Positions 4,349-31,675 of a stretch of 32,000 bases of DNA are shown here, piece by piece (the stretch's first letter is position 1; each line of letters begins with the position of its first letter). The stretch is taken from assembly GCA_965227835.1 (NCBI GenBank), contig OZ245768.1:1200001-1232000 (forward strand), given 5' to 3'. This DNA is from Candidatus Saccharimonadota bacterium (GTDB lineage: Bacteria > Patescibacteriota > Gracilibacteria > BD1-5 > UBA6164). A program made the position numbers and the translations under genes. Under the pieces are notes generated by a model. That model saw nothing but the letters and a program-made list of their open reading frames with translations, was not told the origin of the DNA and ran no database searches.

Positions 4349-5110
4349 CTATAATTTCTTAAAGATAAATAAATGTTCATGCATAATCAGTAAAAAATTA
4401 GCTTCTTTAGATTTTTTCACCCAAAATCAAGTTGCTTTACAGTTATGCTGTACTTTTATAATATCTTCTTTTAGGTAGAATCAAACATTCAAAAATCTTT
4501 CCATTACTTTAAAAGCAATGGGTTGATACATTTTATTTCTTCTTGTATCTCACATCAATACAGCACAATATTTTCATGGTTTTAATACTCTATAACTCTC
4601 TTTTGCTACTTTTTCTATCTCGTCACAAAATTTATCTATATCATGAATATTTGATAAATCTTCTTTTATTTTTCCATCACTATATTTTATAATATCAGCA
4701 TAAGGAGGATGCATTAATACAAAATCAATACTTTCTTTTTTTAAATCTTTATTTTTTTCGGTGGCATTATATTTTTTTACTATAATTTTAGGTTCCTGTG
4801 ATAAATAAGAGGTTTCAAAATCAAGTAAGTTTTCTGTGAGTTTAATTGCATCAAGATTAATATCATAACAAAGCAAATTTCTATTGAGAAGTTTTGCCTC
4901 AATTGCCGTTGTTCCTCATCAGATCATAGGGTCAAGTAAAAAGTCTCATTCTTTGGAATATCTCAAAATAAGGTTTCTCACTACTTCCGGAGACCAGTTT
5001 CATCTATATTTTGAATTATGTGTCATCCAGTTTCATCTTCTCGGGAAAGACCAAACGGAAGAACATTCTTGTTCAAATTCTGTTGGGGGAAGTTTAAGTT
5101 TTTTAGGCAT
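4349..5110 (-). CDS. DNA amino-methyltransferase (N6-adenine or N4-cytosine), motif I before motif IV
   Basis: 253 aa. N-terminal WSFPRRGNWMTHNSKYRGNWSPEVVRNLILRYSKEGDFLLDPMIGGGTT (AdoMet motif I). HPPY motif IV at 4700-4711. C-terminal GDTRRNKMYQPIAF...IIKVQHN. It extends track ORF 4574..4876 in both directions through TGA. Stop is TAG at 4349-4351. Confidence 0.8.
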
Positions 5111-5420
5111 TTTTCTCAATAAACATATAAAGTTCTACTTCATCTAAAAAATCTAAATATTCAAATTCTTGCCCTACTAAGACAGACTTTGAAAAATAAA
5201 TATTTTCAAGTTTTTCTATTTGTTTACTCCCATTATTTTCTGAAAAGTACCAATCAAAATTTCTTCTTCAAACAGTTAAAAAGTTATTCATATTTATTTT
5301 TTTAATGTCTTTTTCTGATAATCCTTCTTGAAAAACCGGTATACAAAATATTTCTCTAACTTTCAATGTGTCTTTAATTTTTTCAAGCTGATGATAATAA
5401 ACTTTTTTTAAAGTTTTCAT
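5103..5420 (-). CDS. 105-aa ORF of unknown function between the controller and the methyltransferase (candidate small nuclease or toxin)
   Basis: ATG at 5420. The stop TAA (5103-5105) overlaps the methyltransferase ATG (ATGCCTAA), which suggests translational coupling. One in-frame TGA. No motif recognised. An alternative ATG at 5291 would give 62 aa. Confidence 0.45.
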
Positions 5421-5610
5421 TTTTTTCTTTTAATAAAATAATAATTTCAAGTCAAAGAAAATTAAGAATTTTTTGCAAAGTTGGGTTATCAAAATTTTTT
5501 GTTCTTATAGATTTATAAAAATTTTGTTTTGATATTTTTAATTCATTATAAATATCACTTTGCTTTAAGTTTCGTTTTTTTAAAAATTCTTTAATTTGTT
5601 CCTCTAACAT
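5374..5610 (-). CDS. XRE-type helix-turn-helix protein, candidate R-M controller (C) protein
   Basis: 78 aa: MLEEQIKEFLKKRNLKQSDIYNELKISKQNFYKSIRTKNFDNPTLQKILNFLGLEI. This is the classic HTH layout (LKQSDI..ISKQNFYK). Frame checked codon by codon. Its 3' end overlaps ORF 5103..5420 by 47 nt. Confidence 0.6.
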
Positions 5611-5635
5611 TCTTATTTTATTAATTCTTTAAATT

Positions 5636-5658
5636 AAGTCAACTAAATTAGTTTACTT
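5636..5658 (-). promoter_or_regulatory. C-box-like operator palindrome overlapping a -35 element
   Basis: aagtcaactaa-a-ttagtttactt is a 23-bp palindrome with one mismatch, 26-48 nt upstream of the HTH ATG (5610). On the minus strand TTGACT (5642-5637) is followed by 16 nt and then TAAAAT (5620-5615), which ends 4 nt before the ATG. No SD is visible, which suggests a near-leaderless transcript. Confidence 0.4.
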
Positions 5659-5747
5659 TTTGTATATTAAAGATAGACCATTAGAAAATTACTAAATTTA
5701 ATAATAATGTTAATATTTTTCATAAAAAGGTATTTTAAAATATAAAC

Positions 5748-6617
5748 TTATGTAACTAAATCATTTAAAATACCTTTTTTAAGCATTTCAATATTATAAA
5801 TATTTCAATCCATTTTATTGTAAGCTTCTTCTAATGGTTTACTAGCTTCATTCCATCATAACCCATCAGTAATCCAGTAAAATGATATATTTTGATTTTG
5901 CATAAAAGCATACAATCAGGCAAATTCTCAAGCTACTGCTTTTAATTTACTACCTCCTCATCAATAGTAATTTACTTCAAACAAATATAATTTATGATTT
6001 TCACTATTATAAACTGCAAAATCAAATCTTCTACTAGATTTATCTAATTGAACATCAATTCACCACTCTTTTTTCATAAAAATAGTTGTTGCTTGCTGTT
6101 TATACTCAAGTCATGGATTTCTTTCACATAAATCTTTTACAAATTCTTCTACTAACTCTTCCATTAAATCTCATGTTCTGTTTTTTCTCGCATTAGAATC
6201 AAGTCATGTTTCTACTCAAAAAACATAGTCATTTAAATTTGATATATTTTTATTCTCAAAAACATCTTTTAAACCGGATTCTCTGAAAAATAAAAGCATA
6301 TCAGAATCTTTAAAATCTTTTTTGCTATTAAATAAGTGTCTTACTTCAGATACTTCTAGAGTATTTTTATTAAGGATTTGCTTATCAAAATCTCTTACAG
6401 CTATTAAAATAGGTAATATCTCTCTTGTTTCAGGATATTCTTTCAAAATACTTAAAAGCTTATCCTCTATATTATTTTCTCATAAAAGAGAATTTAATAT
6501 ATTTAATTGAACTTTTATTTTAAAAGTATTTTCTTTAATTTTATTAAAATCTGAGAAATAATCCCAAGAAAATATAGAAGATTGCAATGTGGTTATTAGA
6601 TTTTGAAAATTTTGCAT
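5748..6617 (-). CDS. type II restriction endonuclease, DpnII/MboI family (GATC-type by family)
   Basis: 289 aa. Core YVFGVETGLDSNARKNRTGDLMEELV...RRFDFAVYNSENHKLYLFEVNYYGGGGSKLKAVAGEF matches my memory of the DpnII family signature. It extends track ORF 6216..6446. Start, internal stop and final TAA (5748-5750) are all in one frame. Confidence 0.85.
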
Positions 6618-6621
6618 ATTA

Positions 6622-8364
6622 TTAAATTTTTACTTCTTTTAATTCTTTGTTTAAATAATCAGAAAAATCTTTTGATTTAGCTGTATGTACAATATTGTCA
6701 ATTCACTTTTCCGGAGACTTATCATATGAATCTAATATTTTTAACAAAATTCGTAATCAACTATTAAAAACCTCTGTAGATAAATCCTCTAATTTAATTC
6801 ATTTAATTTCAATAAAAGTATAATCATATTTTTGTAAAACAATAACTGTTGTAATTAACATTAAATGAAAAGTAAAATTTCTTATAGAAACTCAATAATT
6901 ATTACTTATTAAATCTTCTTCCATATTTATAATTGAACCATTAACAAACTTATTAATAATACAAACTTTCAAATAAAGTTCTAATGGGACTTTATAATTA
7001 AATATTTTTTTATATGTCTCTGCATCTTTTACTAAAGATGTAGGATTTGCCCTAGCAGTTCAAGGACTTTTAAATAAAACTGTCTCAATATATTGAGCAA
7101 CTTTAGGAATATCAAATATTTTATTTCTGTCTTTATTTAAATTTTTATAATAATTTTTTCTTCTATCATAAAAATAACCTTCAGAAATAAAATATTCTTC
7201 AATATCTCTTTGTAGTCAATCAGTAGCTTTTAGATCAGCAGGTCTAACTGCTGTTTGACTATTTGTAGATTTTATAATTTTATCAATTACTTTTAAATCA
7301 TTACTTTTTATTAATTTTATTAATATGGTTCTCTTTTCATCTTTTAATAAGCTATTATTTTCAGTGAAAAAATTAAAAATTGAATAACTAGTTTGTAATC
7401 AATTTACAATTTGTGAATTTTTTAATCTTAATTTTTTTCATGGTAAAGGAGTTACTTCATCATTAATTATAGTAATTCAATTATTTAACCACAAAAATTC
7501 AATATTTGAATCCTCTTTTAAAGTTTCATAAATGTTATTATTAACTTCAACATTTCATTGCCAATGTCTTACATTATTTTCAAGCATATGTTCTTTAATT
7601 TTTCAGTTATCTCAACTAATAAAATTAAAATAATCTTTTATTTTTGCTTGAACAATATAAGCAACTTTTTCATCGTCTCATCAAAAAACTGTATTTATAT
7701 CATTTTCATATTTTAATATTAATTCATTATCTTCTTGCATTAAATATAATTCTCTTAATTTATGCCTTCAAATAATTGATATTTCAACATCCGTTGGGAT
7801 TTTATCTTTTATAAATCTACACAAAATACCAGATTTATTTTTTACTCACTCTGAAATATTACTTTCATTTCACTTAGAAATATAAATAATATTTATTTTA
7901 ATTTTATTTGTATATATTGGGAAATTATCTAATCATTTTTTTACCATATCAAATTTTGAAATTAATCCTTTATTATAATTTTTTTCTTCTAATTTATCAT
8001 CAAAATAATTATGAAAAGTTGCAATTAACTTATCAAAAGTAATCTCTTTAAAACTATCTGAATCTTTATTTTGAATGAAATATATTTCAAAAGTTGTATT
8101 TTTATTAATCTCTTTATTAGTAATTAAGCTATCTAATTCATCTTTTGTTAAAATAAACTTATCGTCAACTAACAATATTATTGAATCTATTCAACCATCA
8201 GATCATTTATCAACTATTGAAAAATAAATATCTTCAATGTTAATGTTTTTATTTTTTAAAATTTGAGAAATTGAGAAAACATCAAATAAGTTTTTTGATG
8301 ATAAACAATTATTTTTTCAAAATTGAGTTATTATTGAATCAATTAATTTAATATCTATTCACAT
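6622..8364 (-). CDS. AIPR-family (abortive infection phage resistance) protein
   Basis: 580 aa. N-terminal FDVFSISQILKNKNINIEDIYFSIVDKGSDGGIDSIILLVDDK, central WLNNGITIIND and SQIVNGLQTSYSI, all typical AIPR motifs. Same frame as track ORF 7933..8175. It starts 17 nt after the Dam stop and ends 4 nt before the endonuclease ATG. Confidence 0.8.
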
Positions 8365-8381
8365 ATATTTATTATTAAAAA

Positions 8382-9344
8382 CTAATAATTAACAACCACA
8401 ACCTCTTCAATTTCTCCTCTTCAACTCCCATTACTATTTACATTTCTTCTAGCTTTCACTATTTCAAATCTAAATCACTTGTATAATTCTCTTATAAAAG
8501 GAGTATTATGGTTTGATAACATTACATAAACTCATTTTTTATCTAATGCTCTAAATACCTTCGCTAATTTAGATTGCATATCTTGTCAAAATCATGAACT
8601 ATCATAAGAAGTGAAATTTGCACTTGTAGAAAGTACATCATAAGGAGGATCAAAATAAACAAAATCTCATTTTTTTGCTTTCGTTAAGACTTTTTCAAAA
8701 CTTTGTAACTTTATTTCTGCTTTAGTATTATTTAGTAACCTTGAAGTATTTATAATATTATCTCTTTGAATTATATCTGGATTATTATATTTTCAAAAAG
8801 GCACATTAAATTCTCCTTTTGAATTTACTCTGTATAAACCATTAAAGCAAGTTCTATTCAAGTATATAAATCTTCAAGCTCTCTGCAAAGAAGAATATTT
8901 TTTTTGAAAATTCTGTTCTCTGTCCCAAGCTCTAATTTCTAAGAATTTTTCTTTTGAGTATTCTAAAGACTCTAAAAAAGTAATTAACTTTTTAGGTTTT
9001 GTTTTAATTGTTTTATAAACATTAATAAGTTCTTCATTTACATCAGATAAAAAACTTTTTTCTCTCTGCAAGTTAAAAAAAACTGCACCTCATCACAAGA
9101 AAGGTTCAAGATAATCATTAAAATCTTGAGGATATAGTTTTTCAAACTGTGAAATGAGCTGTCTTTTACCTCAAACCCACTTTATGAAAGGCTTTGCTTT
9201 TATCGTATCAATATTTTCTTCAAAGAATTGTTCTCAAGATTTTAAATCATTAAAAAATCATCTCTTAAACCAAGATTGCACAACTTGGATACTGATTCAA
9301 AACTTATTAGCTAATTCTAAATTTATTAATGTAATACTTGCCAT
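8382..9344 (-). CDS. dam: Dam-type (D12 class) N6-adenine DNA methyltransferase with an N-terminal HTH-like extension
   Basis: 320 aa. KPFIKWVGGKRQL (TGA=Gly at 9171-9173), FLGGGAVFF, DVNEELINVYKTIK, NRTCFNGLYRVN, and DPPY at 8640-8651. Same frame as track ORF 8874..9071. An in-frame TAA lies just upstream of the ATG at 9344. Confidence 0.9.
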
Positions 9345-11658: not shown

Positions 11659-14058
11659 CTAGTTTTTTATAAAAAATGGTGTTATGATTCAAGAGAAATC
11701 AAAGGTTATAAAATAAGAACTCTTTATTTCTTCTAAATCATCTAAAGATATTTTTCATATATAAAGATCCTCTAGTTTTCATCAATTTTTTATAAAATCA
11801 TCTAGCTTAAAAAATCAGTTAACATATAGACTATCTTTTGTGAAAATTCATTCATCTGAAAAACTACCCATTCATCTTTTTAGTCTGAGTATGTAGTTAA
11901 AAACTTTTTCTAAATCTCAATTATAATATTGAATCATTTTTTCTAAAAGGTTTTTGTAGGAATTATTCAAAGCATAGCTTAAAAAATAGTATCTTTCAAA
12001 TATAGAGTAAAATTTCCTATCAGATTTTCAAAGAAATCTATTTTGGTTATATATAGCGACAGCCTCTTCTATTTCTAAATAGTTAGCAGTTCAAGAGCTA
12101 AAAATTTTATACTTTATTTTTTTTCAATTAATTCTTCTAAGATAGTGTCATTCTATTTCATGTGCTATTATACTTCTAAGTTCTTTTTTTCAGACTTTAG
12201 CTCAATTTCTAACATAAAGTATATTTCATTTCATCACAAATCTAGCAACTTTCAAACCTTTTTTTAGTTTTATATCTATTTTATAAATATGATTAAATCT
12301 CTTTATAAAATCATTTATTTCATTGAAATTTAGATATTCTTCTTCAACAATCAGAGGCTTTTTTTTATTTATTAAACTATCACAATAATCAAGACTATCT
12401 AGGTTTATATTACCATACAATTTAAGAGAATAGTTTGTAAAAGACTTGTAATCTTTGTTTTCAAATGCTCTCAAAAACATTATTTTATTTTTTATTTCGC
12501 TGTGTTTTCTTTTGTATAGTGAAGATAAAGGAATATCTGATATTTCTATTTTATTGAGTTTTTTTTCAAGCTCATCTAAATTTATATCAAGTTTATTATA
12601 CTCAAATTTGGGTATATATTTTCAAGAAGATTCTATGAATTTGTTTTTCTCTGTTAATATATTTTTTGGTTTTACAGATTCTATTATATTTAGTTTTTTG
12701 TCTATGTTTACTATATCATTATCAATGTTTTTCAAAAGTTCTTCATAGTTTCTTTTTATAGCTATATTTTTTGTTCACTGATTGTCTCAAAGGCTTCAAA
12801 TAGGAAATTCTCATTTTTTATATTTAAATGGATCAAGCAAAAATCATCTAAGAGATATTAATCATAATATTATGTTGGTTTTTCATAAATCATTTATAAT
12901 AAACTTTGTCTTCTTTTTTTCTCAAAGTAGAATTAAATCTAGTTTAATGCTTCATTTTGATATTTGAGAATCACTTAGCTTCAATACATTTTTAGCAAAA
13001 TCTATATCTATACAACTTTGTAAAACACTTGGCTTTATCTCAGAGATGTATTTGTATGTTTTATTTTCATAAATTATATGTAAATATTCTCTAGATCATA
13101 AAACTTTTTTTCATGAAATGCTTTTAATTTTATCTTCTATATCTCAAGAAAAAAGATCTCTTCAGAGTCTAACTCATTTTTCTACACTGTTTACAAATAT
13201 TCCATCAACTTTTTTTAGTCTATCTTTTAAAGGAGACAAATTTGCCATTTGTAGTTCTAAGCCAGGTCTTATATTAAGTTCTAAAACTAAAGGTCATTTA
13301 TTTTTATCCAAAACTATATCACAACCTAAGTATCATATCTTGCTAACTTGCTGGGTTTTTACTGCAAGAGACAATGCTTCTTCCCAATTTGGCAGTTTTA
13401 GTCATCTTACATCTCAAATACCAGGTATTGATTTTATAATATTTGTATTACTTGTTATATAGGTTAGTTTTCAAGTACCTATATCAATTCCAACTCAACA
13501 TGCTCAAGAGTGTATATTTGCTTTTCATTTAGAAAGTTCAGTAGGAACTCTAAGCATAGCCATCACAGGGACCATATTAAAAACTATTACCCTAATATCT
13601 GGTAGTCAATATTTTCATAGTAGCTCTATTTCTTCATCTAGCTCAACCTTTTTTTCTATTATTATCTTGTCTCTGTTTCAACTTAAAGAATAAAATCAAT
13701 CTAGTATATTTGAAAAATGTGATATCATATCTTTTTTTTCAAAATATTCATAATTGTTTGTAATATATTTACCTTGTGATGAAATTTGAGTAAAAATAAG
13801 TATTCATCTGCCACCAAAGCCCCCACTTGGTTTTACCACAAATGGAGGAATTAGTTTATCAAAAATACTATAATCAAGCATTTCATGGTTATCTAAAATC
13901 TCTATTGTATCTGGAGTTTTTATAAGATTTGTTTTTAAAAATCTTTTAGTTTTTATTTTAGAATCTGCCAGATTTTTCGCTATTTTATTATTATATCATT
14001 TTATATAATCTAGATTTCTAGCATTTTGACCTAAAAGTCAGTATGTTTTGAAAAACAA
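11659..14058 (-). CDS. fusion protein: alpha-L-glutamate-ligase-like ATP-grasp domain plus DUF1704 (QEGLA / MATCAP-like carboxypeptidase) domain
   Basis: 799 aa. N-terminal half has LLGQNARNLDYIKGYNNKIAKNLADSK, VVKPSGGFGGRGILIF, DIRVIVFNMVPVMAMLRVPT..SKGKANIHSGACGVGID and GCDIVLDKNKGPLVLELNIRPGL. C-terminal half has IIAHEIEGHYLRRING and ANYLEIEEAVAIYNQ. Same frame as track ORF 12226..12480. The first in-frame ATG is codon 60, inside the conserved region, so I infer a TTG start at 14058. Confidence 0.7.
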
Positions 14059-18123: not shown

Positions 18124-18153
18124 AGAGTGGCACCGTAAGCCACTCTTTTTTTT
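18124..18153 (+). terminator. rho-independent terminator
   Basis: agagtggc (18124-18131), accgtaa loop, gccactct (18139-18146), then T7 (18147-18153). Confidence 0.8.
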
Positions 18154-18368
18154 GTCTGAAATTCTAGTATATAATTCAACATACACTAAAAATTAATATG
18201 ACAACTAAAATCAAACCCGTGTGATGTAATATTTTAAGTATTAGTTAATGGAAATAATTAATAATCATTTTTATTTTAATATTTTCTAGAATGTCAACAT
18301 TTTTTACTTCTATATTTTTTAAACTTATGATAAAGTTAATACAGATATATTTAAAACAAAAACAAAAA

Positions 18369-21200
18369 ATGTGAAATAAAAAATTTAATATAGTTTTTTT
18401 CAGCTTAGTTTGATACTTTTTTTTAATTGCTACAAGCTTTGCTTGAGCTCTTTCATGAACATCAAGATACAGTCAAACTCAAAACAAAAAAGAAGAAACC
18501 CAAGAAGTATGACTTTTAGAAACCATCAAAGACTTCTTTTTCAGCTTAGTGAGTTGGATATTCCTATGAATAATAATATTTCTGCTTTTTTATATTATTG
18601 TAAAAACGATAAGAGTAGCTTTTGAGGTATATTATGCAAAAAATATAAGATATTTGAAGATAACTCTACCAAGAGCAGACTCAAAACTAGATAAAGAACA
18701 AGAAACAAAAAAAGATTTTAAAGAAAAACTAGGAATGATGAGTATGTTTTACAAAGCTATACATAAACTATCTGAAGCTGGACTAAAAGATACATTTTTA
18801 AATACAATATTTTGACATTCAAAAATATCCCTAGAACTTGTTTATGACAAATGAGAAGTTTGCTTTTTTATAACAACATATACAAACTATGTAAGTCTAG
18901 TAATGCAACATCTAACCTCTGTATACAACAACGCAGAAATAATAGTATATGAATGAGTAAAAGACTATGTTAATCTAAAAGAAGAATGATACAGTCTGAG
19001 AGCTGCCTCTCTATGAAAAGAAAAAGATGATTTTTTTCCTATCAAAACCTATAAATACTTAGAAGATGATGCCATAAATAATTTCACAAATGTTTTTTGA
19101 TGATTAAACAAAGATGACAAGGCTGTTTTTCAAATGGTAATAAAACCTGAACCATCTAGTTATAACAAAAAAGCAAAAGAAGCAGCATCAAAAGTAGCAA
19201 AATGAAAGTACAAGGCAAACAAAAAATCAACTTTACAATTTTTATGGAAACCCTTTTGACTTCTTTTTAACCCAATAAGAATAATTTTTGAATGATCAGA
19301 TGCTGCAGTAGCAGATCAAAATAATGCACCATGAGCAAGCCAATGAGATTCTTATAAGATATTCAACCAAGCTGAAACAGAAAGTCAAAAATTGATGTGA
19401 GAAGCTGCTAGCCAACCTGTTTTTGAAACCAGCATAAGAATACTTGTTTCTAGTAAAGACAAACAAAAATCAGAAGATTGAATACATGCAATAGTTGCAG
19501 CTGCTTCTATATTTACAGATGAGTACAATAATGCTTTGGATAACCCTCAAATAATAGAAGATGCTATACCTTGATTGATAACAAAAATAAGATATTTTGC
19601 TTTTAAATACAAACTTGTATGATTTTTACAAAATATATCTTATCTATCAACGGATGAAATAACAACGATTTATCATATGCCTGATATAACTTATAATAAA
19701 TCCCCTATTATAAAATGGCTTGATTATAAAAAACTAGCTCCCCCTCATAATTTAAAAATACCTAAAGAACCTACTTATTTGACAAAAAAAGATCCAAAAA
19801 CAGGAGAAACAAAAAAAATACATATGCACCTCTGAGGTTTTCCAGTTTACAGTGATGGTGTTTTATTGGGATGGAATGAGTATAGAAACAAAAAGACACC
19901 TATATATTTTTCAAAAAAAGACAGAGGAAGACACCAGTATGTTTTATGAAAATCTGGTTGAGGTAAATCTGTATATATAGGTTATCTAGCTAGACAAGAC
20001 CTGCGGAATTGAGAATGATTTTGTGTAGTTGATCCTCATGGAGATTTAGTAGAGGATGTATTGGCATATACACCAAAAGAGAGGGCTAAAAATATTACTA
20101 TTTTTGATCCTGCTGACACAGAGAGACCTATGGGACTTAATATGCTTGAAGTAATATCTAAAGATCCAGATGCTAGAAAAAGAGAAATGGATAGAGCCGC
20201 AATGGATGCAACAGAGATATTTATAAAAATATTTGGTGATGAAATATTTGGTCCAAGAATACAGCATTATTTTAGAAATGGTTGTTTGACTTTAATGGAA
20301 GATAGTGAAGATGGATGAACACTTATAGATGTACCTAGACTTTTTGTAGATGATGCTTTTATGAAATACAAAGTTTCTAAAGTAAAAAATCCTGTAGTTA
20401 AATCATTTTGGGATCATGAATATGCAAATACTTGAGATAGAGAAAAACAAGAAATGATACCTTATTTCTCTTCTAAGTTCGGTCCTTTTGTAACAAACAC
20501 AACTATAAGAAATATAATATGACAACCTAAATCTGCTTTTAATATAAGAGAGTTAATGGATAACCAAGGTGTTTTACTTGTAAATCTTTCAAAAGGTAAA
20601 ATAGGAGCTTTAAATGCTCAGTTACTTTGACTTATTTTCGTATCAAAGATAAATATGGCAGCTATGAGTAGGGCAGATATACCTCAAGATCAAAGAAAAG
20701 ATTTTTATTTATATGTAGATGAGTTTCAAAATTTCGCTACAGAAACTTTTTGAGAAATATTGAGTGAGGCTAGAAAATATAAACTAGCGTTGATTATGGC
20801 TCATCAATTTATAGCTCAAATTTGATGAAATTGATCACAAAAATGAGATAAACCTTCTATTAAAGATGCTGTTTTTGGTAATGCTTGAACACTACAATCT
20901 TTCAAAGTATGAGCAGATGATGCTGAATATTTAGAAAAAGAATATGCCCCTTCTCTTTCTCAGCAAGACATAATAGGTGTTGCTAACTTTACTACGTATG
21001 TAAAACTAAACATAGATAATGCATCAAGTAGACCTTTTGATATAAAAACAATTTGGGATCAGGCTTATGAATATGAAAAAGCTAAAAATGGTGTAACAAT
21101 AGCTGAAATAGTCAGAGAATACTCTAGAAAAAAATACTGAAGAAGAAAAAAGTTTGTGGATTTAGAAATAGAAGCAAGGCTTTGAATAAAATCCGAGTAA
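18369..21200 (+). CDS. membrane-anchored P-loop ATPase, type IV secretion coupling-protein-like (VirD4/TraD/TraG-like)
   Basis: 943 aa. Two N-terminal TM helices. Walker A GKSGGGKS at 19947-19970 (two Gly are TGA), followed by CVVDPHGDL. Walker B YLYVDEFQNFAT (DE at 20718-20723). ARKYKLALIMAHQFIAQI. It runs through track ORF 20061..20318 in the same frame. Stop is TAA at 21198-21200. Confidence 0.7.
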
Positions 21201-21270
21201 CAATATTTTGAAATTTTTTAAATAAAGTGTTATTATTTGGTTGATGTATAAATTTTTAAGAAATAAAAGT

Positions 21271-22257
21271 ATGAAAAACAAAATAAAAAAAATATTTATC
21301 TGTTTAAGTTTTTTAGCAATTTACTTATTATGTTTTTTTGGTGTATCAAATAACTATACTTCAGCAAATATAGACGAAAACATAAATATAAATTTAGTAG
21401 ATGATTGAGATAAAGAAAGAAACAAGGAATTAAATAAATTTTGAAAAAGTGAAGATGGTTTTTTTGGTCTATGAAGTAGACAATGATGACAATGAATTTT
21501 TTATACTTTGGTTGAAATAGCCCAAAGTTTGAAAAATATGTTTTTTATATTAGCTACCTTGTTTTACTTAATAGTTTCTATAAAGCTTTTAGTAGCTGAA
21601 AACACAGAGGAACAAGTTAATAAATTCAAAAAAGCAATTATATGGGTAACTATAGGACTTATTATAATGCAAATAGCTTATTCTTTTACTGTAACACTAT
21701 ATGCAAAAGAAGTTTGAAGCTCTCTAGCTTTCAGTTTTATAAACAACATAGTAAATCCTTTAATATGATTAATGGAAGTACTTGCTTCTATGTTTTTCAT
21801 AGCAATAGCAATATTTGCTTTTTATAGAATGGTTACAGCAAATGGAAAAGAAGAAGAAGTAACTAGAGCTAAAATGTCTATAGTATATGCTATTATTTGA
21901 TTTATTTTAATAAAAGTAGCAAAAATTATAGTAGAATGAGTGTATGGAAAATTAGAATGTGAAGAAACAAGTATAGCAGGATTTAACATAACTACAACTA
22001 GTTGTATATGAGACGCTCAACTAAATACTCTAAGTTTTACTTTTATGCAAATAATAAATTGGGTAAACTCATTTGTGTGAATAATAACAGTACTTCTTAT
22101 AATATATGCTTGATTTAATATACTTTTCTCTGCTGGAGATGATGAAAAAGTTAAAAAAGGTAAAAACACTATAATATATATAGCTATTTGATTATTACTT
22201 TTATCTATAAACTACCTTTTATTAACTTTCTTTATAGTTCCAGAAACAACTATATAA
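21271..22257 (+). CDS. secreted/membrane protein with three tandem VirB2/TrbC-like (T4SS pilin-like) two-helix modules
   Basis: 328 aa. Signal peptide MKNKIKKIFICLSFLAIYLLCFF. Three repeats of the pattern TM helix, small acidic loop with K-rich motif, TM helix. The loops are LVAENTEEQVNKFKKAI, VTANGKEEEVTRAKMSI and FSAGDDEKVKKGKNTI. Same frame as track ORF 21508..21717. An alternative in-frame ATG lies at 21244. Confidence 0.6.
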
Positions 22258-22327
22258 ATAGTTTTTAAAACAGAATAAAAAACAAAATTAGTCTTACCTG
22301 AAAATTTTAATTCTTTTATTTAAAAAA

Positions 22328-23239
22328 ATGAAAAAAAGATACCTAGTTTTAATAGTTTTAGCAATAATTTCTCTTAGTTTATTTTGAGAAACTTTAGCAT
22401 GATATGGAAATATATTGTGATGAGATGAAATTAAAAAATCTTCTATAAATATAGAAGAAAAAATGGATGCTTGATGAGATATAGTATGAAGTATAAATAA
22501 TGTTTGATTTAGTGCTCTTTCTGTAATAAAACTTATTATCCAAGGTTTACTTGTAATATATATAGTTTATGTAGGAGCACAAATGGTTTGGGCTATGTGA
22601 GAAGATGAAGAGACATTAAGTAGTGCAAAAAGACAGATACGGTACAGTGTTATAGCTTTGCTTTTTATAAATATACCTTGAAGTATATATAGAGCTATAA
22701 ACCAAGATAGTTACTCTAAGGTATGAGAAAGGATTAGTAATGATAATTTTTTGGATAAATGAACAGAAACAAATATGTTTTTTGATGTATTTAATTTTTG
22801 ATATACTTTTTGAGATCAGGTAGTCTGATTTTTAGAAGTAACTATTTTAGCTATAGCTATAATAATAATTATATATGAAGGAATTAAACTTATAACAAGT
22901 AGATGAAGAGAAGAAAGAATAACTGAAGCTAAAAACAAAATAGTTTATGGTGTGCTTGCTTTAGTTTTTGTATGAATAATAGAAGCATGGAAGAATTTTG
23001 CTTTTTCTTTCAAAGTTTCTGAAGCAAGGAATATATTTAGCAATTTAGCTGATTTAGCTTTATTTTTCGCTGCTCCTGTTGCATTTTTCTTTTTAACAAT
23101 AGCTGCTTATTATTACATAACTTCAGCTTGAGATGAAGAAAGAATAAAAAAGGCAAAATCTATTGTAATAAATACCATTTTAGCTACACTAATTTTATTA
23201 GCAGCATACACTTTCTTACTTGATTTAGCTGAACTTTAA
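22328..23239 (+). CDS. second protein with three tandem T4SS pilin-like modules
   Basis: 303 aa. Signal peptide MKKRYLVLIVLAIISLSLF. Module loops are WAMGEDEETLSSAKRQI, ITSRGREERITEAKNKI and ITSAGDEERIKKAKSIV, each flanked by hydrophobic helices. Start and stop are in frame. Confidence 0.6.
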
Positions 23240-23264: not shown

Positions 23265-23702
23265 ATGAAAAAAATAGTTTTGTTTGTTTTTGTATTAATA
23301 TTTACATGTTTTTATTCTTCAAATATTTATGCTGAAGATACAGGTACAATAAAAGTAGAAGTTCCAATTAATTTCTCTTGAGTTTTTGGTTCTAATGAAG
23401 AAGGTGGAGTAAAATGTAGCGATACTGCTTGAGATAATGGTAAATATTATTGTAATGTACCGAAATGAACTTCTTGATTTCAAGTTGTTCTTGCTTGAAT
23501 TATTAAGTATTTAATTTTTATAGCAAGTTTAGCTTGAGTTTTATTTATAGTAATAAATGGGATACTTTATACTATGTCTGGTATAAATGATTCTTTAAAA
23601 TCATCAGCAAAAGAGAGGATCATAAAAACTCTTTTGTGAATTATTCTTTTGATTATGAGTTGAGTTATCTTAAATATAATAGCTCCTTGGGTTTATAAGT
23701 AG
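23265..23702 (+). CDS. single-module T4SS pilin-like protein
   Basis: 145 aa. Signal peptide MKKIVLFVFVLIFTCFYSSNIYA, a Cys-containing ectodomain, then a helix, MSGINDSLKSSAKERI, and a second helix. Stop is TAG at 23700-23702. Confidence 0.6.
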
Positions 23703-23981: not shown

Positions 23982-25379
23982 CTAAAAATTAACAACTCAT
24001 AAAAACACAGTGATAAAAAGTATAAAGAAATTTAAAATAAGACTAAAAACTCATCTGCTGAAATAAATACAAAAATAAATCAAAGAAAAAACTAAAAAGT
24101 AAAATACTCATCTATAATTTAAACTTTCTTCAAAAATTATATTTACTCAATAATAGTTTAAATTGGTAAAAATTATAAAAATCAAACTATAAAAAAGAAC
24201 AACAAAAAACAAATAGTTACGCATATTTTTGAAAAATCTAAATATTATATCAAGAAAAAAATCAAAACCTTTTATAACTCTAGTATAAGAGAATATTTTT
24301 CCTTCTAGTTTAGCTTTAAAAAGATATATATTTTGTTTTATTACTCTTCTTCTAACTATCAAATCTTGTTTTTTTGAAATATTTTTCTCTCAAGGAAGAA
24401 TAAAAACAAATATATTTTTTAAAATTTGAGAATTATTTTGTTTTAGTTTTTGTTTATATTTATTTAAAAATATTATTGTTTTTAAATATTCATGACTTGT
24501 TTTGTCTGAACTTCAAACTCATTCTTTTTTTGGCTTTTTATTTTGTTTAATTAAATCTTTAAAAAAGGCTTTCATTCAAAAAAGTACTTTTTCTGCTTGT
24601 TTTTTTATATCTTTATCATCTGGTATAAACTTTTTTTCACTTCAAATTTGCTTTAAAAGCTTATTTGTCTCATTTAAAAGTTCTAAAGTTTTTTCGTCTT
24701 TTGTAGATTCTAAATATCAAAGCTCTATTTCTCATATTTTCAAAAGTACACTTTCTCATACTTCTCTTAATTTTGAAATATTGGTAGAAGATTTTATTTT
24801 TATTAAACTATTATATAGATTTTTTAGTTTTATTTTTTTCTCTTCATCCAATTTATATTTATCTTCTCATAGTAAATTATTTACTTTAGATAATACAAAA
24901 TCTATAAGTTTATAGGTTTCTTCAAGTTCTTTTTTTAAATAAAAGCTATCTATATTTGTTTTTTCTTCTTGTTTTTCTTCTTTATTTTTTGTTTTTTTCT
25001 CTTCTTTTTGATTTAAAGCATCATAATATTTGTATTGCTCTTCTAATTCTTTCAATACATTTTGTTTGTATATATCATCTTTTTCTTCATCTAAACTAGA
25101 ATAAAGAGATAAAACTTTGTATCAAAGCTCTTCTCTTAGTTTTAGATAAATTTTAAAAATATCTTCTCAAACTACTTTTCAATTTTTTTCTTCTCAATTT
25201 TTTTCTCACCTAAAAACAAAACTTTTTTTATTTGTATCTAAAGTATCAAATAAAGAAATAGATAAAATAGAATATCCATCGTCATGAATCCTTTTTTTTG
25301 CGAGTTTCTCATTTTCTTCACTTATAACAAAAGTGTATTTTTTTTGAGATTTACTGGCTGTTATTTTGTATTTTGGCAT
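23982..25379 (-). CDS. hypothetical coiled-coil protein with C-terminal TM helices
   Basis: 465 aa. It joins track ORFs 24867..25055 and 24147..24362 (same frame) through many TGA codons. K/E-rich central region and a hydrophobic C-terminal third. Stop is TAG at 23982-23984. Confidence 0.55.
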
Positions 25380-29562: not shown

Positions 29563-30963
29563 TTAACTACATTCTCTCTTATATAAATCAATTAAAGATT
29601 TACATAAATCTCACCTACTACACCAATATCATATATGTTTATTTTCTACATAATAAGACAAAGTATCTTCTATACTTTCTCATGATCAATTTTTTCTACA
29701 TATGTCCGCTCCATATTCTACAAGAAATTCTGCTAGCTCAATATTATATACACCTGAAAAGAAATCCCATCTACTAATATCAACTCAATATTCTATCAAC
29801 AATTTTACTTCTTCTACTTTTTTAGGTTTATAGTTTATTGCTGATTTTTTTAATATATGTGTTTTTATAACTCAAGTTCAAAATTCCATATTTGGATCAG
29901 CTCATTTTTCAAGAATAGTTTTTATTCTCTTGGTTTTATTATCATTATATGTATTTATAGCTCTTGATAATAATGTTTGTCCATTTTCATCTTTAATATT
30001 TATATCTCATCATTCTTCTAGAAACTTATCAAGTCTTTCTTCAAACTCTTCAAAACTATTTTTACCGTTTATATAAGACATTTTAGCTTGTATAGGATTT
30101 TCTAGATTATACTTTTTTCTTTCTTCTTCTTTTTTTCTTTTATCACCTTCAGGATCAAAAATATGTACTAGCCTTGATGATTTTTTGTCTCAATTTATTA
30201 ATAATATATTTGCTTCTCACCCTCTTTTCGCTACTACATATCAACCATCTGTTATATCTATTATTTCTGAAGGATATTCTTTGTCTTCCATATAGTTAGG
30301 TCATATACACTTTTCAGAAACATAACATTGCTCATAAAAATTTGTTCATAGTTCTTTAGGTAAAGGTCTTATAAGTCAGTCTGTATATAGACCATAAGGT
30401 GTTATTCTTTCTTTTTGTCATACCATCATATATAAAGGTTTATTATGCCATTTTAATACTGGCCCAAAAAGCACTGATTTTAGTTTTGCTATACTTTCAT
30501 CTGGTTTTTCCACTAAAATTGTTGCTGTATTTGATTCTTTAACTACAAGCTTATCATTTTCCAACACTAAAAATCTTAAATAAAAAGAAACATATCCTCA
30601 ATGTTTTTTTGATAAGCTAAATTTATATGTATCTTTTCTTTCTATATCTATTTCTCTGTTATTCATTCAATTTAAAACTGTTACAAACCTATATCAACTT
30701 TCTTCATAGAAATATATTTTATCTTTTAGTTCATTAATTTTAAAAACTACTTCTTCTCATGGTTTATATACTTCTTTATCTGTTGAAATTTCTACCCAAT
30801 TATCTTTTTTGTTATAATCTTTTTCTATAGAATCTAAATCTAAACTAAATTCATTTTTGATAATTTTGCCACTTTGAGAAAAAATACCTTTATTATTTCA
30901 ATCATAGGAACTACATCAATTTAAAATAAAAATTAAAATGAAAACAAATATTGTTTTTTTCAT
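29563..30963 (-). CDS. probable lipoprotein with C-terminal ankyrin-like repeats
   Basis: 466 aa. MKKTIFVFILIFILNGCSS is a signal peptide plus a lipobox-like LNGC. C-terminal DENGQTLLSRAI...ILEKGADPN, LLIEYGVDIS and FLVEYGADICRKNGSGESIED resemble ANK repeats. Start and stop are in frame. Confidence 0.55.
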
Positions 30964-31004: not shown

Positions 31005-31675
31005 TTTCAACACATCGGGATAAAAACCCCTATCTTTAGATAGTTAAGACACCGAAGGTGTAAGTGATAGAAATTGAATAAATGAGATGTGTTGTGACAT
31101 AGGGTTTTAAACCCCGTTGCCTTCAGGCCGATTCTAAAGAAAAAAGTGTAAAAAATCAATAGAATAAATAAAATAGTGTTAAAAACTAACACTAGAGAGA
31201 ATGAAATACCAAAAAAGTAGTCATGCGACATATGATGTCAGATACCATATAGTATGGATAACAAAATACAGAAATCCATTCATGACAAAAGAGATACAAG
31301 ATAGATTGGAAAAGATCATAAGATGAATAAGTAAAAAGCTATGAGTAATAATAATAAAGATATGAATGGAAGAAGATCATGTACATATGTATTGTAGGAT
31401 ACCGTTAACTAAACCAATATCTACAATAGTATGACATATAAAGTGAGAAAGTTCTAAGGCAATAAAGAGGTATTTTTACAAAGAAATTAAGAGATGGTAT
31501 TGGAAGACATGAAATATATGGTGAGTATGATATTTTGTATCTAGTGTATGAGAGATAAATTGAGAAATAATATCTAATTATGTGGAACAACAGTGAGAAG
31601 AAGAGAATAAGATTGAAGAGATAGAGCTTTAAATTTCAGTACAAATAAAAGCCCCGTGCCTTCAGGCCGGGGTAG
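31005..31675 (+). mobile_element. IS200-type (IS200/IS605 family, tnpA only) insertion sequence; ends approximate
   Basis: A HUH transposase gene is flanked by related GC-rich subterminal hairpins: cg-tt-gcc ttca ggc-cg at 31115-31130 and ccccg-t-gcc ttca ggccgggg at 31652-31672. The left end also carries a long-range 9-bp stem, 31008-31016 with 31086-31094, enclosing two small hairpins. Confidence 0.6.
31201..31632 (+). CDS. tnpA: IS200/IS605 family transposase TnpA (Y1 HUH)
   Basis: 143 aa. SHATYDVRYHIVWITKYR, EEDHVHMY (HUH) and GVGYFVSSVG (catalytic Tyr region). It has eight in-frame TGA read as Gly. Stop is TAA at 31630-31632. Confidence 0.85.

Follow-up and report, generated by a model that had tools for sequence, protein, structure and literature searches.

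The question raised by this locus is what two neighbouring proteins do that each carry three tandem pilin-like hairpins on a single chain. Their genes, here called A and B, lie in a 32,000-nucleotide stretch of DNA (the window; positions 1,200,001 to 1,232,000 of the forward strand of contig OZ245768.1, assembly GCA_965227835.1) that was deposited as Candidatus Saccharimonadota bacterium and is placed in the Gracilibacteria in the GTDB lineage. A gene for a VirD4-like ATPase precedes them, and a gene for a single-hairpin protein, gene C, follows them. Under the standard bacterial code (table 11) the region splits into short open reading frames (ORFs). The total length of ORFs of at least 100 codons in the window (~24% G+C) rises from 3.7 kb when TGA is a stop to 36.5 kb when TGA is read through, and TGA encodes conserved glycines in a Walker A motif (GKSGGGKS), in serine hydroxymethyltransferase (YYGGC and GGHLTHGH) and in Dam (FLGGGAV), all within the same window. 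The code of the window is therefore table 25, in which TGA is glycine; table 25 is also the code of the Gracilibacteria and Absconditabacteria. Read in code 25, the locus consists of four genes in a row on the same strand, with coordinates in the window and lengths in amino acids (aa) as follows:

18291..21200, + strand: VirD4/type IV coupling protein-like ATPase, 969 aa; hydrophobic segments at the N-terminus, long N-terminal domain
21271..22257, + strand: gene A, 328 aa, signal peptide and three pilin-like hairpins
21271..21366, + strand: signal peptide of A, aa 1-32 (MKNKIKK, a hydrophobic core, TSA, then N)
21493..21717, + strand: A module 1, aa 75-149, loop AENTEEQVNKFKKA; PF18895 30.8 bits, E 3e-7
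21718..21960, + strand: A module 2, aa 150-230, loop ANGKEEEVTRAKMS; PF18895 39.9 bits, E 4.4e-10
21961..22008, + strand: linker of A between modules 2 and 3, predicted to lie outside, aa 231-246, bracketed by a Cys pair (aa 230 and 245)
22009..22254, + strand: A module 3, aa 247-328, loop AGDDEKVKKGKNT; PF18895 35.0 bits, E 1.5e-8
22328..23239, + strand: gene B, 303 aa, signal peptide (aa 1-24) and three pilin-like hairpins
22493..22702, + strand: B module 1, aa 56-125, loop GEDEETLSSAKRQ; PF18895 22.8 bits, E 9.6e-5, under the cut-off
22778..22993, + strand: B module 2, aa 151-222, loop RGREERITEAKNK; PF18895 27.2 bits
22994..23236, + strand: B module 3, aa 223-303, loop AGDEERIKKAKSI; PF18895 29.6 bits, E 7.5e-7
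23265..23702, + strand: gene C, 145 aa, signal peptide aa 1-23
23469-23699, + strand: hairpin of gene C, aa 69-145, one module

Gene A has a second possible start, a TTG at 21241, and the signal peptides of A, B and C were read by eye from the sequence together with a hydropathy scan. In the public databases A is represented by P0001, the same ORF read in code 4, so that Trp stands at each of the 14 TGA codons; the proteins of this genome are held in code 4 with Trp at every TGA, as are those of many relatives (e.g. P0097). Such mistranslation weakens domain matches and could distort structure predictions.

Module homology and membrane topology

A preliminary description of this DNA, made from its letters, had reported two consecutive genes that each encode a signal peptide and three pilin-like modules, with a single-module pilin gene after them. 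These features were borne out by profile searches, in which the gathering cut-offs were 26.6 bits for PF18895 and 27.9 bits for PF04956, and the curated cut-off for NF045849 was 40 bits. PF18895 (T4SS_pilin) matched three stretches in each protein (A, 76.7 bits, E 1.4e-21; B, 51.1 bits, E 1.4e-13), all six modules matched when scored singly (E 4e-10 to 1e-4), five of them above the cut-off, and matches to the same family were found in 73 of 76 members of the A family. Gene C contains one module (PF18895 22.8 bits, under the Pfam cut-off). The six loop motifs quoted in the preliminary description are all present verbatim, and its coordinates for A and B are exact. NF045849, a Mycoplasma pilin-like family of integrative and conjugative elements, also matched three stretches in each protein (A, 51.5 bits, above the cut-off; B, 36.9 bits, below it). 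No module in the window passes the TrbC/VirB2 cut-off of PF04956, the best being a weak match of B module 2 (17.2 bits, E 0.006). The signal peptide, two hydrophobic helices and short charged loop that characterise PF18895 proteins are seen here in the hydropathy profile, in the helices of AlphaFold2 (AF2) models and in the charge of the loops. A and B depart from the single-hairpin form of about 100-150 aa by having three hairpins, and C conforms to it; the family's usual place in a type IV secretion system (T4SS) cluster near virB4 has no parallel here, as the 32-kb window holds no VirB4-type gene.

The seven modules of A, B and C align in register over an ungapped core of helix, charged loop and helix. 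When module families from 33 genomes were compared profile to profile, module 3 of A found its best partner in module 3 of B (E 1.2e-12), modules 2 and 3 of A matched each other at E 5e-11 and modules 1 and 2 of B at E 2.6e-10, and the C module matched both A module 3 and B module 1 at E ~1e-6; A module 1 and C are the weakest links. Column-reversed controls, which keep composition and hairpin layout, scored 4 at the median and 24 at most, and the real pairs scored above 27 in 13 of 21 cases. The repeats are accordingly homologous to one another, rather than hydrophobic helices of a generic kind. The preliminary description had itself named generic transmembrane helices as the finding that would undo it, and what was found instead is pilin similarity to PF18895 in both proteins and module pairs down to E 1e-12, the reversed controls reaching a score of 24 at most.

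A is further related to C beyond the hairpin. Profiles of the A and C families match with 93% probability (E 2.8e-7, 91 columns), and the alignment sets the Cys loop and module 3 of A against the Cys-pair ectodomain and hairpin of C. In the A family the first cysteine (aa 230, which ends module 2) is 100% conserved and the second (aa 245) 97%. The last unit of A thus corresponds to a whole C-like mature pilin, and this alignment points to fusion of adjacent pilin genes as the origin of the three-hairpin proteins. The ectodomain of the C family is small and beta-rich, with an invariant Cys pair, and the AF2 model of a gene C ortholog consists of three strands and two long helices. The family is very conserved for a pilin, with an invariant VLFIVING in helix 1 and an invariant C-terminus, APWVYK.

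Hydropathy and the AF2 model of P0041, a correctly translated syntenic ortholog of A, both give six predicted membrane helices, the number that the preliminary description had proposed to test for; in the model these are 31-40 residues long and form three hairpins. Lys plus Arg per residue amounts to 0.19-0.30 in the hairpin loops vs 0.04-0.09 in the linkers. With this contrast in charge, six spans with cytoplasmic loops, and with the linkers and both ends outside, is the predicted topology that fits. Each module position carries its own conserved signature.

Conservation, ATPase linkage and relatives elsewhere

A search for homologs of A in about 5.8 billion proteins returned 96, nearly all of 300-345 aa and with identity down to about 30%; the named ones belong to Ca. 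Gracilibacteria, in agreement with the assignment to the candidate phyla radiation (CPR) made from the letters. Exactly three modules were found in 94 of the 96, and both exceptions are on contigs of ~1-1.5 kb. With one genome taken per species, a relative is encoded in 209 genomes. The best 80 of these 209, which carry the labels Gracilibacteria, Peribacteria or Patescibacteria group, were used for a survey of loci. A broader hidden Markov model (HMM) of the module detected 110 ORFs with three modules, 42 with one and two with two in the 80 loci. Both two-module ORFs are truncated by a contig end, and all 110 complete multi-hairpin ORFs have three modules, as do the orthologs of B (32/32). 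The tri-hairpin proteins of Gracilibacteria are fixed, old trimers.

The ATPase encoded upstream of A matches DUF87, TrwB_AAD_bind and TraG-D_C in Pfam and, weakly, the TraD and CedD coupling proteins in NCBIfam, and it aligns with TrwB around Walker A at E 6e-4. Its orthologs carry PF02534 and PF26449 (DUF8128), the latter annotating the long N-terminal domain. The syntenic ATPases are 72% and 60% identical to the window's, and B is 49% identical to the syntenic gene of locus L002. The order seen in the window, ATPase, A, B and C (type I), was found in 29 of the 80 loci and in three more that are cut at the ATPase end. In 12 loci the ATPase is accompanied by A alone, and in 32 (type II) a second ATPase, about 815 aa long, is encoded immediately after an A-like gene (33-39% identity), with a third ATPase upstream in 10 of these 32. 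All these ATPases share an N-terminal motif and the coupling-protein domains, and an ATPase of this family adjoins a tri-hairpin gene in 73 of the 75 loci that are uncut at the relevant end. In the flanking DNA covered, which reaches up to 6 kb on each side, the 12 loci with ATPase and A and the 32 type II loci (44 in all) contain no other pilin-like ORF. The minimal conserved unit is therefore one ATPase and one tri-hairpin protein, and this unit has been duplicated into a second system.

The second system, in other Gracilibacteria, is illustrated by loci L059-L076 (e.g. L076:3119-9231 and L060:3171-9315), in which the tri-hairpin gene lies between two ATPase paralogs of about 860 and 815 aa; no single-hairpin pilin is encoded nearby. 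A further single-hairpin PF18895 gene was seen on the opposite strand ~4-5 kb downstream of C in L006, L007, L008, L012, L023 and L031, and another in the type I locus L002 (14477-14905). When the window was scanned with an HMM of its own seven modules, no counterpart of that downstream gene was found. The window contains no relaxase, VirB4, VirB3 or VirB8 gene, and there is no integrase near the block. Origin from a mobile element was ruled out, given that no integrase or relaxase is nearby and that synteny is kept across species. Two flanking genes for membrane proteins (147 aa upstream, 465 aa downstream) were considered as parts of the system and rejected, as neither has a counterpart in L001 or L002.

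Proteins with more than three hairpins were found elsewhere. A single-hairpin profile matched 7,704 representative proteins at E <= 0.001, and among the best 150 of these are proteins with 5-8 matched stretches; in all eight such proteins checked, Pfam likewise detected 5-8 PF18895 domains. Three poly-hairpin relatives pass the PF04956 cut-off (P0200, 91 bits; P0251, 51 bits; P0278, 109 bits), a sequence similarity that ties the PF18895 hairpins to classical VirB2. Unlike the Gracilibacteria trimers, the 5-8-hairpin proteins vary in module number and often have nearly identical repeats, and no T4SS ATPase is encoded within 9 kb of them. Examples from other uncultured bacteria have six (L003:1777-3435), seven (L086:4904-6655 and L088:40-3180) or eight hairpins (L087:9001-11463). 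The six-hairpin protein of L003 is encoded inside a pilin array, and its gene translates under the standard code. Some multi-hairpin proteins adjoin PF18895-PKD fusions. Five hairpins and a Cys-rich C-terminal domain were found on archaeal contigs (L004:2544-4235 and L005:2541-4232), where the neighbouring genes encode Spt4 and the ribosomal proteins S24e and S27e; this protein occurs on three contigs from separate sources (JGI, Logan and one further block). Poly-hairpin pilin-like proteins are thus not limited to bacteria.

Proposed role and its rivals

Tentatively, we favour a reading in which both A and B remain uncleaved in the membrane as subunits with six spans, each built by joining three pilin hairpins, and act with the VirD4-like ATPase as their partner and together with C. 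Fusion of three VirB2-like hairpins would have made A and B fixed six-span proteins of the cytoplasmic membrane. Removal of the signal peptide would leave the N-terminus outside, the hairpins would dip in and out of the membrane with their charged loops in the cytoplasm, and the inter-module linkers and the C-terminus would again lie outside. Left uncleaved, A and B may form a membrane-embedded platform or pore in partnership with the adjacent ATPase, and the single-hairpin pilin C would be added to this platform or pass through it. The machine would be a chromosomal envelope apparatus derived from type IV secretion, probably serving a host-dependent lifestyle and not conjugation. In favour of this reading are the constant number of three modules, the position-specific signatures and conserved junctions, the ATPase linkage with its minimal two-gene unit, the charge contrast of loops and linkers together with the Cys pair of A, the six helices of the AF2 model, the pilin-like regions of CedA and VirB6, and the reported absence of VirB6 from Gracilibacteria. 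The architecture, its conservation, the linkage to the ATPase, the homology of the modules and the fusion origin come directly from the sequence data, whereas topology, lack of processing, contact with the ATPase and the platform role are inferred. The preliminary description had put forward a fibre or channel whose repeat is fixed at three subunits; this is possible, and the channel or platform version is preferred here.

The classical pilins TrbC, VirB2 and TraA (F-pilus, T-pilus) and the archaeal CedA1 and TedC likewise consist of a pair of long hydrophobic helices with a short charged loop between them, and in the membrane pool the classical pilins have both ends outside and the loop inside. 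They differ in being single hairpins of about 70-120 residues, sometimes cyclised, and we know of no three-hairpin form of the classical conjugative pilins. The NF045849 Mbov_0395 family resembles A and B in its domain match and in belonging to the conjugation systems of monoderms, which agrees with the origin proposed for the Patescibacteria system; it differs in being a single hairpin (80 profile positions) carried by a mobile element, whereas the modules here are fused and lie in a conserved chromosomal block. VirB2-like pilins are also encoded in Patescibacteria by arrays of separate genes, 2-11 in the systems surveyed (Quinonero-Coronel et al. 2025, PMC12102498) and six in the essential array of Ca. 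Southlakia epibionticum (transposon sequencing, PMC10633639). These arrays share with the present locus the signal peptide, helix, short charged loop (type sAGdEEk..kAK) and helix, the presence of divergent copies side by side, and the monoderm, chromosomal setting without a relaxase. They differ in that their genes are separate and stand near virB4, whereas here the hairpins are fused three per chain in fixed order, in a 3+3+1 arrangement with a VirD4-like ATPase as neighbour instead of virB4.

The polytopic channel proteins VirB6, TrbL, CedA and TedA have five or more spans and are encoded beside a T4SS ATPase and a pilin, and A and B have six predicted spans beside such an ATPase. PrgH is counted in this group too, and for two of its members a region homologous to the cognate pilin is reported: the N-terminal region of the CedA channel is homologous to the CedA1 pilin, and VirB6 is related to VirB2 in the same way, more weakly (Beltran et al. 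2023, PMC9905601). The profile match between A and C is the corresponding feature here. A and B differ from VirB6, TrbL, CedA and TedA in that they have no large hydrophilic domain and in that all three hairpins, not just the first, are pilin-like. Comparison of the A-family profile with the single sequences of TrwI (E 0.37) and PrgH (E 0.21) was negative (R388 accession NC_028464), and the VirB2 control TrwL was missed too, which indicates low sensitivity. Comparison with a TrwI-type VirB6 profile, shallow in that its members are >50% identical, was likewise negative (probability 0.3%, E 0.21). No match to PF04610 was found in 76 A-family members, and the A-family profile found nothing relevant among PDB sequences. 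These comparisons are a weak negative, and membership of A and B in VirB6 cannot be claimed. No VirB6 was found in Gracilibacteria in a recent survey (Quinonero-Coronel et al. 2025, PMC12102498), so a VirB6-type role is left open there.

Several points weigh against the platform reading. The platform role is drawn from genomic context and by analogy, since neither the sequences nor the predicted fold showed a resemblance to VirB6, TrbL or PrgH; with the whole six-helix model, the best fold match (E 0.63) was among generic helical proteins, and no VirB6 or transporter fold was recovered. The P0041 model is of moderate quality (predicted local distance difference test score, pLDDT, 72; predicted template-modelling score, pTM, 0.50), so that its hairpin packing is unreliable. 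The ATPase resembles coupling proteins and not VirB4, and no VirB4 gene is in the window. Finally, the features of the 5-8-hairpin proteins fit better with fibre or anchor roles, and fusion by itself implies no platform.

A serious but less likely alternative is that A and B are instead subunits of a fibre, a filament of pre-linked trimers with a fixed three-hairpin repeat that would be built alone or with C. Every module is a PF18895 hairpin, the third unit of A corresponds to a whole C-like pilin, and proteins with 5-8 near-identical hairpins occur within the pilin arrays of other CPR bacteria. In F- and T-pilus structures both termini of a VirB2-type hairpin face one side, so head-to-tail linking is geometrically possible. 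A single-hairpin model superimposes on the solved conjugative pilins 8dfu (the Aeropyrum pernix CedA1 pilus subunit; template-modelling score on the target, TM-target, 0.68; root-mean-square deviation 2.9 Å over 75 columns) and 8exh (Agrobacterium VirB2; TM-target 0.56); however, these Foldseek matches are not significant (E about 2) and are compatible with a pilin fold without discriminating. Modules that are old, strongly diverged and position-specific suit a fixed heteromeric assembly better than the equivalent positions of a fibre, and many loci consist of an ATPase and one tri-hairpin gene with no single pilin. VirB4-type ATPases extract pilins from the membrane, whereas the neighbouring ATPase here is coupling-protein-like.

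An elaboration of the platform reading, which we consider unlikely, would have A and B together supply six distinct hairpins (twelve helices) that form a pseudo-sixfold membrane ring on a hexameric VirD4-like ATPase, with a homodimer taking their place where a single tri-hairpin gene is present. Such a ring would be the missing VirB6-equivalent of Gracilibacteria, a pore of pilin units as proposed for CedA and VirB6. If it is true, the divergent pilin arrays of other CPR bacteria, such as the six genes of Ca. Southlakia epibionticum, would, by a gene-fusion (Rosetta stone) argument, encode one hetero-oligomeric assembly and not alternative or antigenically variable pilins.

A somewhat smaller chance is given to a role unrelated to secretion, in which PF18895 hairpins would serve ultrasmall bacteria and archaea as a general-purpose membrane module of two helices, with A and B acting, for instance, as anchors or scaffolds and the ATPase linkage reflecting another process. 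Elsewhere, poly-hairpin proteins carry fused PKD or Cys-rich ectodomains, and their genes lie amid housekeeping genes with no T4SS gene within 9 kb, on archaeal contigs included. The window lacks VirB4, VirB3, VirB8 and relaxase genes, and a pilus has been demonstrated for no PF18895 protein (PMC12857230, PMC10633639). However, the scores of 51, 91 and 109 bits with which some poly-hairpin relatives exceed the TrbC/VirB2 cut-off (27.9 bits) argue against it, as does the near-constant position of the Gracilibacteria trimers beside a T4SS-family ATPase. PF18895 genes moreover occur near virB4 in 1,135 Patescibacteria assemblies (PMC12102498) and are essential in the T4SS cluster of Ca. Southlakia epibionticum, a cultured Saccharibacteria species (PMC10633639).

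That A and B are polyprotein precursors, each cut by a peptidase into three monomer pilins so as to deliver variants at 1:1:1, is improbable. VirB2 and TrbC pilins are processed at both ends, the even-numbered spans run from inside to outside as signal peptides do, so that signal peptidase could in principle reach the junctions, and position 153 of A is always a small residue (A or G). The junctions themselves argue otherwise. The family alignments contain no conserved pair of small residues at -3/-1, and the candidate -1 residue is Glu in many members; weak cleavage sites are still possible. The residues on either side are conserved like structural motifs ([YF]-D-[KR]-G-V-[GS]-x-x-L-A in A and G-x-I-E-A-W-K in B), the linker between modules 1 and 2 of A measures only about 6 residues between the predicted helices of the AF2 model, and no dedicated peptidase gene is present in the conserved four-gene block. 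The processing into monomers that the preliminary description had entertained is thus disfavoured by junctions that are short, conserved and structured and that lack the conserved -3/-1 pattern of signal peptidase sites. Its description of the proteins stands; the coupling to the ATPase, the second paralogous system, the origin by fusion and the 5-8-module proteins had been missed.

An artefact, in which an assembly error, a frameshift or misread TGA stops falsely join three small pilin genes, can be dismissed: a TGA does lie exactly at the junction of modules 1 and 2 of A and another in the linker between modules 2 and 3, and public databases use the wrong code, but TGA also stands for conserved Gly in housekeeping genes of the window and occurs inside the modules, the junction position is occupied by Ser, Asn or Thr in homologs, L085, a locus scored as using the standard code, has a three-module ORF without an in-frame TGA, and the same architecture, three modules in every complete multi-hairpin ORF, recurs in 80 independent assemblies.

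The preliminary description's statement that the architecture had not been described holds for the searchable literature. A survey (PMC12102498), a 2025 FEMS review (PMC12857230) and a transposon-sequencing study (PMC10633639) report VirB2-like genes in separate arrays and no fused modules, and a search for literature on fused or multi-domain pilins found nothing relevant. Databases hold many of these proteins under the labels 'pilin' or 'hypothetical protein'; the sequences are therefore already known, and it is the tri-hairpin architecture and the ATPase linkage that appear undescribed. VirB2-like pilins in a monoderm lineage have already been deemed the most surprising feature of the Patescibacteria T4SS, a system that the one species tested needs for its epibiotic life. 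A class-wide, fixed three-unit fusion locked to an ATPase is natural evidence of pilin paralogs side by side in one structure, and a six-span protein of pilin units, in a class where VirB6 was not found, bears on the published idea of a shared origin of the VirB6-type pore and the pilin. The trimers also offer a simpler target for structural biology with a defined stoichiometry, and the analysis draws attention to proteins with 5-8 hairpins, a broader and so far unreported set that spans CPR bacteria and archaea.

Transcription signals and the rest of the window

Between 17300 and 24100 one terminator-like site was found; shuffled sequences average 1.5, so it is weak evidence. This hairpin probably marks the start of a separate transcription unit of the ATPase, A, B and C. 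A promoter scan gave sites no more numerous than in shuffles. The remainder of the window holds housekeeping genes and a restriction/defence island (4349-9344). These features are:

18124..18146, + strand: terminator-like hairpin after the upstream gene, 8-bp stem with 5 GC pairs, T-run
4349-5119, - strand: N6_N4 DNA methylase, restriction/defence island
5748-6617, - strand: DpnII restriction endonuclease, restriction/defence island
6622-8364, - strand: AIPR abortive-infection protein, restriction/defence island
8382-9344, - strand: Dam-like methylase, assigned by motif only, restriction/defence island

The gene next downstream of C is on the opposite strand (23982-25379, -); its 465-aa product is rich in Lys and Glu, has membrane helices at the C-terminal end and matches no family. 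At 11659-14058 (-) lies the gene for an unusual ligase-peptidase pairing, a 799-aa protein that joins an ATP-grasp domain of the sugar-transfer type to a MATCAP (tyrosine carboxypeptidase-like) domain. Near the end of the window, a gene for an IS200-like Y1 transposase (31201-31632, +) adjoins that of a 466-aa putative lipoprotein with ankyrin repeats (29563-30963, -).

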